A stretch of DNA of 61,756 nucleotides, filler included, from Dugesia japonica (Eukaryota): the NCBI GenBank assembly GCA_001938525.1. It is 6 parts of 6 records of this genome, joined end to end, with 100 filler letters (N's around TTAATTAATTAA, not from the genome) between each part and the next. Parts side by side here need not be neighbours in the genome. Positions count along the whole stretch, not along the records: positions 1 to 8,629 come from MQRL01166905.1; 5 more parts are not named here. One strand, 5' to 3'. Every line of letters starts with the position of its first letter. Positions within the stretch are counted from its first letter, which is position 1. A program made the translations under genes and the position numbers. Positions 1,328 through 5,570 of the stretch are shown one piece after another. The notes below the pieces were generated by a model that did not search any database, was not told the origin of the DNA, and was given only the letters and a program-made list of their open reading frames with translations.

Positions 1328-3672
1328 TTGTTATTCCTAATGATGGGCAGAAGTGAAGCCATATTAGCATACGATTGTGATGGAATGCAAGTTGGAAAGG
1401 AAGTATTCTCATTAGTGGATACAGAGGAATGTCCAGATGCAAACCCAGAGAAAATCTCACTCAGTAATAATTCCATTTACCATCTATATCAAGAATCCAA
1501 TTACTACAAGGCCCAAGTCCGCGAGTGTACGGTTAAGGTAAAAACTTTTATATTCCATTGTGGGTATCACAGTTATACTTCAATAATTGATCCAGGAACA
1601 GTGAGACACCCTGTACATTTAACCGGACAACAATGCGACAAAGGATTTGCGACGGGCAAAATTACCATCAAACATGGGACTCAGGTTATTGCCAAGAAAG
1701 GACATGTAATTGATCAACCAATAGAAGCAGCAGGAAGCATATCCACACCTAAGGGTCACTGTGAATATAGTACCTACACTATCCGAGGAAAGGTCTAGGA
1801 ATATGCGGTAGCAATCGAAACGTATACAGTAGAACTCATGGAATATAAGGCATTCTTTGATGCCCAAGATTTGACTATGAAAGGAAGATCGTATTGCAAA
1901 GCCGCAGATGGATCATGTAATACAGGTACATCAACACTGACATATAAAGTAGAGCACCAGGATTGTAAGTTAGCACACCTAAAGGAAGCCATGTTTAATG
2001 AATACCAAGGACAACGAGCTATAACACCTATTGACCAAGCCCCAAAGGAAGGTAATCTAAAAGAGAGGATAGATAATCTCAAGGAAACAATCAGGACAGG
2101 CCCGAGATCATATGACCAGCAATGGCACACAACGCCGACGGTGCTAATGTCTTCAGAACAAGACGAGACCATCCGTCTAATTAAAGGAAATTCAATGTCA
2201 AAGTATGGTCAAATAGTATTTAACACAAACTATAAAGGGATATTCGTGTCCTAACATCGAATAAAAACAGCGCAAGCCGCGGTAATGTCACAAGACATCA
2301 AATTACACCTTTACACCAATATACCTTTACAGACAATATATTTCACCGAATGCAAGATACCATCGGACGAACGTACCACGATCTTATTCAAAATGATTGC
2401 ACGTTGAACAAAGAAATATTAAAGAAAAAATTACCAATGGCAGTTACCTACCCTGAAAGTGTCACCCCATTACTCCATTTAGAGAAATGACAATTTGGTC
2501 GAGTGGTAGGAGAAGTGATGTACTTATACAAATGCAAGGCGATAGATGCGGAATTCTCCTCCAACACAAAGCACTGCTATAACGAGATAGAAATCATCCA
2601 CAACAATGAAAAGCGTATTGTACAACCAATCACTCGAATAATATCGCCATTGGGCTATAGGTCGAATATTATAAATTGCTCCAATGTATTTGAACCACAA
2701 TATGTAATGACAGATGGTTCATGGATAAGATTCCCTCAACGAATGGCAGTAGGAGTTGAGCCAAGAAAATTTTCCATGTTACGTCTAAACGGGGGTATGC
2801 GATTCACTCCAATCGACGTAAATAAAGGAGGAATCTATAGCAGAGAAGATCTAGAGAAGGCTAGAGAATATATGCTGTTTCCCGTCCAAAGGATGCAGAT
2901 TCTATCAAATATAGTACAGTTAACCAGTGGAACTAACATACATGGACGAGTAAACTACGATGCACTCTTATCGGCAGATCATTTCCAAAAAGCCACCGAA
3001 AATGTCATGCGGAAAATTTAGGGACGATTCATCATATTTGGTCAAGCAATGGCAGGATTGTTAGGAGTTATGCTGATAATTTCGGTGACACGAGTAGTGA
3101 TTACTCAATTGTTCGCATGCTTCGATATATACAAAAGAGAGAAAAGGGTGAATTGGAAAATGGTAACCGGAATATTTCACTTTTTAGCCAAAACCATGGT
3201 ACTTAATAGCCACTCTAAAGACATCGATAGAGTGAAGCGATTTATCCGGAAGCTCGGACAAATAAGAGGATCAGATAAGGAAGTTATAATGCTGCTCAGA
3301 CTCCTATGCAAAGACATGAGCAATGCAAAAAAGAAAATATCGTATTTCAATCAGTTTAAAGTAAGATTTAAGAACACAGATGAAAGTAGTAGTAGCAGCG
3401 ACGATGATAGAGGCGAAAGCAGGGGAACACCTCATGTACCCAGTTGTAAAGCTGCTATGGAATATGATGCAGCATTCAAAAGGCAGCAATACGAAAAGAT
3501 CAGCAAAATGCAACGACTGAAAAACGCATTAAGATTCGGAGTAGGAGAAAGGTCCCGTGTACAACAATCCGTATATAAGCTCACCACAAGCTCCGAATCT
3601 GGCGCTGATAACAGAAAACAATTTATCAACTATAGACAGAAGAGTAATCGAAAAAAACCTACGCACTCCTAA
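1328..3672 (+). pseudogene. Chuvirus-like envelope glycoprotein, broken by stops and a frameshift
   Basis: Signal peptide then AYDC...SLVDTEEC; HCGYHSY; GEVMYLYKC...HCYNEI; GGIYSREDLEKAREYMLFP; TM AGLLGVMLIISV. Fragments 1328-1798, 1838-2254, 2503-3021, 3049-3672. Confidence 0.8.
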
Positions 3673-4887
3673 TAATCAGATGACTGAGGATGATAAATTA
3701 GAAACACAGACAGTATGTATAATGAGGTCCCAGAGAGCAAAATTACTACAGAGAAGGATAAAAATCGACGGAAGATGGGTAATAGCTATTATTGATACAG
3801 GCGCAAGTACGACGTTAGTCCATAAAAGGGTATTAGAAGATTATCGCCGGCTTAGAATAACCATCAATAAAGAAATTATCACCACAGCCTCTGGAGAAAA
3901 AATCTCACCCATTGGAGAAGCAATATGTGCGATAGAAAGCGACGGAACCCGTTTCTGGCATAAATTACAAATAATGAATGAATTAGCATTCGACTGTCTA
4001 TTGGGATTGGACCTCTTGCCACGCCTTTGTCCCGAAGAAATATTGGATTTGAGAAAATTATCTATACGGGAAAATTATGACCAAGAATATGCACCAGTAG
4101 GTTATCAGAAAACTCGAATAGTAACCCAACCGAAACGACCATGGAACCAGCCGGCACAAAACCGGCTACGACAATGCTCAACTAGACGAAATGCACAAAG
4201 CGACTCAAATCAAACCCGTCGAAAAATCACCAATACCCCCACCATGATAAAGGATGATTGGATACGATTCCAAGAACGAGAACCCCGATGGAAATGCAAA
4301 ACACAATCCAACACCAGTAATAGCTCTTCGGATGTGGTATGCGCAAGTCTCAATGGCGGACCAGTATTAACCATTATAGTTAAAATCAACGGCCGACCCA
4401 CAACAGCCCTAGTGGACACCGGAGCAACCTTATCATTACTGTCAATAGATGAAATCGCGATAACCGAATATAAATTTTTGAAGAATTGGACTGTGAAGTC
4501 GAGTATCAAGACAACAAAATTAAACACAATATCATTATAGTAGAAATGATGGGAAAGTGCATTCTTGGAACAGATATTCTTCCAGTCTTGATAAAAAATG
4601 GCATATTGAACTTTGCAACTTTACGGTTACAATCATTGGAGGGTTATACCCATGTGAAGGATCACGAAGTATTTACCACAGAGGAAATTTTGGTACCCAG
4701 TAGATGCCAAGTATATTGCGTGGTCAGTACCAAAAGTGCCTATGAAGGAGATTGTTATTTCGAACCATATGACGGATTTGCACATCAGTACGAACTACCC
4801 ACAGCAGAAGGAATAACCACGGTCAACAAAAGTGGGGACGTACCTGTTAGCTTGGTTAATTTTACAGAAAAAGATATCACAATTTAG
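3557..4887 (+). pseudogene. Two tandem retropepsin-like aspartic protease domains
   Basis: AIIDTGAST...CLLGLDLL in 3557-4540; second ALVDTGATLS with CILGTDIL in the shifted frame 4486-4887. Confidence 0.85.
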
Positions 4888-4899
4888 CCAAACTCCAGG

Positions 4900-5570
4900 A
4901 TGGGTACACTAACTCCCATCGAACCAGAACCCGAAGTGATAGACGAAGTAGCCACTGAACCGGAAATCGACAGAACATTTAAGGTAGAAACGGAAACTTT
5001 GTCAGAAGACCAGAAACAAGCAATACTACAATTGTTGGAAGAATTCCGAGATATCTTTGCATGGACGGATGAAGAGCTGGGTATGTGCACAGCAACAATA
5101 CACACGATTCCACTAACAGTAACCATATGCCATGACAGTGGAGAAAAAAGAGTTCGCAAATAAAGAAACCGCTAAATTAGTGAAAATCGGTGTGATAGTA
5201 CCTTGCTGGTCACCATGTCAGTCCCCAGTGGTGTTGGTAGATAAAAAATATGGGACACAACGATTCTGTATTGATTACCAAAGACTAAATGCTCAAACTA
5301 AGAAGGACACTTACCCCTTGCCAGATATCAATGAGCTATTGCAATTATTATGTAATGCTAAAATATTCACAACGTTGGATTTGCGAAGCGGTTATTGGCA
5401 AATAAAGATCAAACCTGAAGATAGAGAGAAGACAGGTTTTTCTACAGGCAAGGACTTATACCAATTTATCCGTATGCCATTTGGACTGACGAATGCACCA
5501 GCTTCTTTCCAACGAATGATGAATTACGTCACTCACAGCATATCTCAATGTATGGCGTATATCGACGGAA
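4900..5570 (+). pseudogene. Ty3/Gypsy reverse transcriptase, N-terminal half, truncated at the YxDD motif
   Basis: SPVVLVDKK..RFCIDYQRLN..YPLPDI..FTTLDLRSGYWQI..KTGF..MPFGLTNAPASFQRMM..AYID, then unrelated sequence. Confidence 0.92.

Follow-up and report, generated by a model that had tools for sequence, protein, structure and literature searches.

Planarians carry giant Ty3/gypsy long terminal repeat (LTR) retroelements, termed Burro or GYPSM1, whose polyprotein of ∼4,900–5,100 amino acids includes gag, cargo domains and a BCL2-like domain (PMC6431247). In the sections of that review drawn on here, an in-frame env between gag and pol, described in 2019, is placed 'between BCL2 and PR' (protease) and matches mononegavirus fusion glycoproteins, a dUTPase-like domain lies between the protease and the reverse transcriptase (RT), and Dugesia japonica is reported to contain decayed Burro-type fragments interrupted by stops and frameshifts (PMC6431247). 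RNAi of smedwi-2, which lowers piRNA silencing, is reported to raise BURRO1 (PMC8532177). Gypsy elements with an env of the glycoprotein B (gB) type and a GAG-ENV-POL order were reported in 2026 from Platyhelminthes, Nematoda and Bryozoa, with six S. mediterranea elements listed (PMC13524379). A PF24664-type chuvirus glycoprotein is also reported in mosquito BEL/Pao elements (PMC7642597), and this glycoprotein adjoins gypsy pol as well, according to the parts of PMC13524379 used here. We analysed a stretch of 61,756 nucleotides from D. japonica (assembly GCA_001938525.1), hereafter the window, in which six parts are joined by filler and the first part (MQRL01166905.1) contains a retroelement with a glycoprotein upstream of protease and RT.

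The order of domains along this element is Bcl-2-like, class III glycoprotein, two aspartic proteases, dUTPase-like and Ty3/gypsy RT. We consider it highly likely that a single retroelement copy lies here, dead and with an internal deletion, and that it belongs to a high-copy family of giant Ty3/gypsy LTR elements of Burro type, which are GAG-ENV-POL 'errantiviruses' carrying an envelope of the gB/chuvirus type; AT-richness and the Burro layout make a dugesiid planarian the most likely host. An earlier note on this DNA had inferred an independent envelope capture by a Gypsy lineage with inverted gene order; a new capture with an unreported order is not supported, as env between gag and pol had already been published (PMC6431247; PMC13524379). 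The arrangement is real but known, and the window holds a decayed addition to the known Burro-type elements. With stops at 1283, 1796, 2252, 2488, 3019, 3670 and 4885 and frame changes near 2330, 3600, 4475 and 5120, this copy makes none of the predicted products.

Glycoprotein, reverse transcriptase and their linkage

The two halves of the glycoprotein were searched with stops read as X. The N-terminal half (1286–2254) matched Pfam PF24664 (Monjiviricetes fusion) at E 5e-32 over profile positions 6–210, and the C-terminal half (2236–3672) matched the same family at E 5e-46 over positions 320–601. A model of the N-terminal half predicted from a 74-sequence alignment (pLDDT 86.8) returned herpes gB in all rows listed by Foldseek, with a best E of 4e-7 and low TM-scores near 0.3. 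VIA-align also placed gB first (Z 7.9, root-mean-square deviation 5.4, 204 aligned), followed by thogoto GP, rabies G, Chandipura and baculovirus GP64. These matches agree with the chuvirus-like identity given in the earlier note, and by its predicted model the glycoprotein has a class III fusogen fold. Six gB-type ectodomains of S. mediterranea (Smed_errantivirus_1-6; eLife supplement of PMC13524379) have a cysteine register in common with it, judged by eye rather than by an identity figure; the glycoprotein is identical to none of the six. A full-length glycoprotein with signal and transmembrane segment (TM) had been claimed, and this holds, but the reading frame is not intact, being interrupted by four stops (the second to fifth of those listed above) and one frame change near 2320–2340. 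In 13 of the 13 relatives listed, the [AG][YFW]DC start of the glycoprotein comes after a hydrophobic stretch comparable to the signal-like helix in the window, as judged by eye.

The RT segment matched Ty3 RT best among solved structures (E 6e-38), with caulimovirus next (4e-22), and the top RT matches carry gypsy-type companion domains, as expected from the claimed Ty3/gypsy affiliation. The glycoprotein belongs to the family reported in mosquito BEL/Pao (PMC7642597; PMC13524379), which is the one feature that would favor an Anakin-like BEL/Pao element with a chuvirus glycoprotein; the mosquito elements share PF24664 with the window copy and differ from it in retroelement superfamily. The closeness of the RT to Ty3 and the presence of RT_RNaseH and Integrase_H2C2 in relatives argue against such an element. 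The BEL/Pao-type families PF05380, PF18701, PF03564 and PF05585 occurred in none of the 22 relatives scanned and nowhere among the 120 RT matches listed. By structure and family matches, in place of a BEL/Pao reference tree, neither a BEL/Pao-type RT nor its companion domains were found, and we give this explanation almost no weight.

Linkage of glycoprotein and RT was examined in relatives, here designated by P numbers. An exhaustive search with the C-terminal half of the glycoprotein returned 615 proteins at E ≤0.001. Of the 150 listed, sixteen selected on rank and length were scanned for domains; 14 contained glycoprotein and protease in one open reading frame (ORF) and five of the 16 contained RT as well. 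Further cluster members combined all three in two of three cases (P0154 and P0156) and then again in two of three (including P0280). Nine natural single ORFs thus hold glycoprotein, protease and RT in that order, which bears out both the env-before-pol order, common to the window and its relatives, and the suggestion that the layout was once a single frame. P0280 is one natural frame of 4,099 amino acids that is colinear with window positions 965–5566, at identities of 31% (965–2341), 51% (2338–3249), 54% (4358–4474), 32% (4483–5115) and 61% (5126–5566). It also contains the pol order PR-RT-RNase H-integrase, of which RNase H and integrase are missing from the window copy. When the RT alone was used as query, the most identical protein was P0160 (63%), which was the sole glycoprotein carrier among the 120 matches listed and is 76% identical to P0280; the search with the glycoprotein alone reached the P0280 cluster. 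Because separate glycoprotein and RT searches lead to the same lineage, and the P0280 frame is colinear with the locus, we conclude that this is one element and not two.

The earlier note had also offered nested elements as an alternative, in which a glycoprotein-bearing element or a chuvirus insertion lies beside, or within, an unrelated gypsy pol. Glycoprotein, proteases and RT do occupy different frames in the window copy, and protease 1 is closer to P0154 than to P0280, which could mark an old recombination. These points are outweighed by the nearest relative that glycoprotein and RT share, in which they lie in one frame, by the uniform composition over 1–8000 and by a family depth of the same order from glycoprotein to RT; two elements are thus ruled out in practice, and we regard this explanation as very improbable. 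No listed piece spans the stretch, so the reads are silent on long-range linkage. When longer proteins containing the C-terminal half of the glycoprotein were sought by word index, none was found among 408 candidates, and all 80 RT loci from a metagenome scan with P0160 lacked a glycoprotein. One glycoprotein-protease-RT-integrase polyprotein (P0007; HBK71150.1) is labelled Flavobacteriaceae, from a metagenome-assembled genome, and is probably animal DNA in the bin.

Bcl-2-like and dUTPase-like domains and the Burro assignment

Two domains absent from the earlier note's list, a Bcl-2-like domain at ∼950–1190 and a dUTPase-like domain at ∼4650–4920, lie where the review places them in Burro (PMC6431247), and for this reason they support membership in that group. 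A phmmer search of 156 proteins with 950–1190 matched segments at the corresponding position in P0003 (E 8e-5) and in P0008 (E 0.007). A profile of four segments matched Bcl-xL at E ∼1e-4, and Pfam Bcl-2 was the sole family common to all four segments, at E up to 10 (best 2e-5) and below the curated cut-off. The segments were picked by position and visible motif, a selection that favors this result. A low-confidence model of the P0003 homolog segment (pLDDT 55.6) retrieved chains of the Bcl-2 family in its top 19 rows, with a best Z of 7.2. No useful match was obtained in PDB, Pfam or Atlas with the 950–1190 piece alone, the whole of P0018 gave no PDB match, and the frame-3 piece at 759–968 gave no match to relatives, limiting the Bcl-2-like support to the BH1-BH2 half. 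A Bcl-2-like domain directly before env, as in Burro, is thus present by way of homologs. The dUTPase-like call between protease and RT is weak but consistent: a 6-sequence profile found mostly dUTPases among 20 PDB rows (best E 0.009), and three of the six profile members matched Pfam dUTPase.

The locus resembles Burro/GYPSM1 in having Bcl-2-like, env, PR, dUTPase-like and RT in one polyprotein and in its high copy number (PMC6431247); the env-before-PR order is present in the window, and the single frame is found in relatives and is broken in the window copy. It resembles Smed_errantivirus_1-6 in its Ty3/gypsy pol and in a gB-type env before pol (PMC13524379). Unlike Burro, the copy is broken and internally deleted and has two protease domains versus the one named in the review sections used here (PMC6431247). 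Gag, MATH, SUMO-like, BIR and ankyrin domains and LTRs of Burro are not visible in the window. Segments resembling ubiquitin or SUMO, as reported for Burro, were seen by eye upstream of the glycoprotein in P0154, P0007 and P0010.

In a glycoprotein tree (FastTree, midpoint root; 58 rows, retaining the polyproteins and the 40 best stand-alone proteins from 138 that passed a length filter) the window was sister to P0280 with support 100. All 18 polyprotein rows, including the window, were split with support 94 from the 40 stand-alone glycoproteins, which are ∼650 amino acids long and include one cluster from beetle. This split argues against a gypsy lineage apart from Burro that made its own capture of a chuvirus-type glycoprotein and arrived at env before pol by convergence, and such a lineage would also need a Bcl-2-like domain before env and a dUTPase-like domain after PR to recur by chance. 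The splitting of the glycoprotein-bearing RTs in the RT tree, and the lack of a direct match to the sequences of the named families Burro-1 to -4, count in its favor; we judge it improbable, if somewhat less so than two adjacent elements.

Several observations weigh against assignment to the Burro-type elements. In the RT tree the window and P0160 pair with a support of only 91, and the glycoprotein-bearing RTs do not form one group; this is a quick tree of 150 columns with 54 rows from 116, none of them BEL/Pao. The Bcl-2-like segment was found upstream of the glycoprotein in four of the 13 relatives listed, and on the window's own letters the Bcl-2-like and dUTPase-like calls fall below curated cut-offs and come from small alignments chosen by position. 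The assignment was made by layout and published descriptions, and of six short motifs taken from the Smed elements as published, none matched the relative proteins retrieved. Gag, long LTRs and the ∼30-kilobase size of Burro lie outside the view, since the window edge and a gap cut the element.

Protease domains and predicted polyprotein processing

The earlier note had the glycoprotein running directly into the protease. The ORF at 3545–4540, which contains two D-T-G protease motifs, does overlap the glycoprotein frame by 128 nucleotides, but a linker of ∼600 nucleotides separates the TM from the first protease domain. As had been stated, the interval from glycoprotein to protease contains no gag. 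Protease 1 is closest to the protease of P0154 (37% identity, versus 28% for that of P0280) and groups with the pol-proximal proteases (99). The number of protease domains is two in the window and in P0014, three in P0006, four in P0010 and six to seven in P0156, most with both catalytic motifs. P0156 is a frame of 4,844 amino acids in which glycoprotein, protease domains (two of them behind integrase), ankyrin and a C2H2 finger are combined. The nearest relatives P0280 and P0160 have one protease domain each, which argues that the extra protease is dispensable. A loose cleavage-like motif before proteases, seen at 11 of 27 sites without a control, is uninformative and was not used.

No description of multiplied protease domains was found in the literature searched; Grohme 2018, Sacco 2022, Repbase and figures may hold one. 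The main text of PMC13524379 contains 'BCL' zero times and 'protease' once, and thus takes up neither Bcl-2 cargo nor extra proteases. We raise as a tentative and rather unlikely proposal that the protease was multiplied and kept in the lineage, and that the copies may form single-chain or mixed dimers or divide the cutting of a membrane-threaded polyprotein of 4,000–5,000 residues. If true, this would be a processing strategy undescribed among LTR retroelements, and one used by a virus-like lineage whose fusogen has an apoptosis regulator coupled to its signal helix.

In intact relatives a single long frame runs from (gag and upstream cargo) through the Bcl-2-like domain, internal signal, class III glycoprotein and TM to a linker, protease(s) and dUTPase-like domain, followed by RT, RNase H, integrase and an accessory tail. 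Hydropathy and general knowledge of viral polyproteins suggest that such a polyprotein threads the membrane of the endoplasmic reticulum once: the internal signal would send the glycoprotein into the lumen, the glycoprotein TM would return pol to the cytosol, and signal peptidase together with the element's own protease(s) would then cut the parts loose. By estimate, ∼25–60 residues separate the signal helix from the BH2 motif before it, and the helix, judged from sequence, could double as a Bcl-2 tail anchor unless a protease cuts between. The predicted role of the glycoprotein is fusion of particles with neighboring cells, and the Bcl-2-like domain would be predicted to act on apoptosis.

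Extent, copies and surroundings of the element

Features of the element are collected in Table 1. The element coincides with an A-rich block of ∼40% GC that starts with the first base of the window and breaks off in a gap at ∼8630, against a host background of mostly 17–30% GC. Gag is not visible because the element runs to that first base. It is expected further upstream, since P0014 (Retrotrans_gag) and P0010 and P0144 (zf-CCHC), which are more distant relatives than P0280 and P0160, carry gag markers upstream of the glycoprotein. No Pfam match was obtained for the upstream remnant; in P0280 a similar low-complexity stretch, seen by eye, precedes the Bcl-2-like part.

Table 1. Features of the retroelement, in window positions.
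Positions	Strand	Feature	Support
1..949	+	Upstream polyprotein remnant; low-complexity charged linker; ORF 144–857	Same A-rich ∼40% GC composition; many family contigs cover it
950..1190	+	Bcl-2-like domain, BH1-BH2 half, in frame of glycoprotein N-terminal half with one stop (1283) between	Via homologs
1313..1360	+	Internal signal-peptide-like hydrophobic helix	Hydropathy peak at 1322
1361..3030	+	Class III (gB/chuvirus-type) glycoprotein ectodomain, four stops and one frame change	Pfam, predicted fold, relatives
3031..3123	+	Glycoprotein TM	Hydropathy 2.2 and 2.1; conserved in P0160 and P0280
3124..3745	+	Cytosolic linker; glycoprotein-to-protease frame change somewhere in 3545–3672	ORF list; depth dip at 3420–3682
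3746..4030	+	Aspartic protease 1, extra copy; catalytic Asp codon 3794; motifs intact	Pfam gag-asp_proteas E 2e-14 (ORF)
4358..4600	+	Aspartic protease 2, pol-proximal; catalytic Asp codon 4415; frame change near 4475	Aligns to the single protease of P0160/P0280, into dUTPase-like
4651..4920	+	dUTPase-like domain, degenerate motifs, stop at 4885	Pfam dUTPase E 0.025
5123..5566	+	Ty3/gypsy RT, N-terminal half only; frame change near 5120	Pfam RVT_1; 63% to P0160
5567..5830	+	Probable post-integrase tail joined to mid-RT	Motif 5756–5776; family depth high across 5524–5786
5831..8630	+	3' accessory region of same element: Cys-rich ORF 5837–6277, TM-bearing ORF 6945–7691, ORF 7692–8630	Same composition

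The RT breaks off at 5566, on the first Asp of its YxDD motif. Shortly after this break, in the same frame, the short motif at 5756–5776 matches one that follows integrase in P0006 and P0156, which makes an internal deletion of the remaining RT, RNase H and integrase likely. The Cys-rich ORF of the accessory region has a decayed paralog at ∼6690–7080 (self-similarity E 8e-7); no family match was found for the region, and its ORF 7917–8627 had no Atlas or Pfam match. Some other copies skip ∼5790–6300, which includes most of the Cys-rich ORF (joints 5789–6301 and 5793–6298).

Contig records matching 1–7880 numbered 17,369 (run X1), 12,786 and 3,812 in three runs, totals that are not true copy numbers. 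They were mostly <95% alike, the biggest class in X1 being 90–95%. High counts at this divergence indicate an old and abundant family, with the high copy number described for Burro, and family depth stays of the same order just beyond the RT break. A repeat comparison within the window found no long repeat involving 1–8630. In one RNA run, of which about a quarter was read, 45 reads matched; since 41 of the 45 were <90% alike, they are uninformative on expression of the window copy.

Elsewhere in the window, an A-rich block of ∼36% GC at 46000–52300 (−) contains ORFs that bear a TM or are rich in Cys; in a tiny, biased search these showed weak similarity (E ∼5e-5) to the accessory ORFs at the 3' end of the element, and the block may be the tail of another element of Burro type. 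A fragment of another gypsy element (RNase H-integrase; ∼22–30% identical to relatives) lies at 13888–15366 (−). Two Polinton/Maverick-like remnants at 31750–35226 (−) and 52862–60677 (−), ∼24 kilobases apart in the window, are 70–82% alike and contain ORFs resembling integrase, packaging ATPase, capsid and adenain by eye; the protease is the only Pfam match, and a weak one (E 0.02).

As a repeat of published work, the finding as first stated matters little. Its added value lies in sequence and fold support for the Burro env as a class III fusogen of the gB/chuvirus type, and in a layout common to several divergent families. The questions raised, which a dead and deleted copy makes no more testable than intact published elements do, are whether infectious particles occur in planarians and what roles the extra proteases and the Bcl-2-like domain play.

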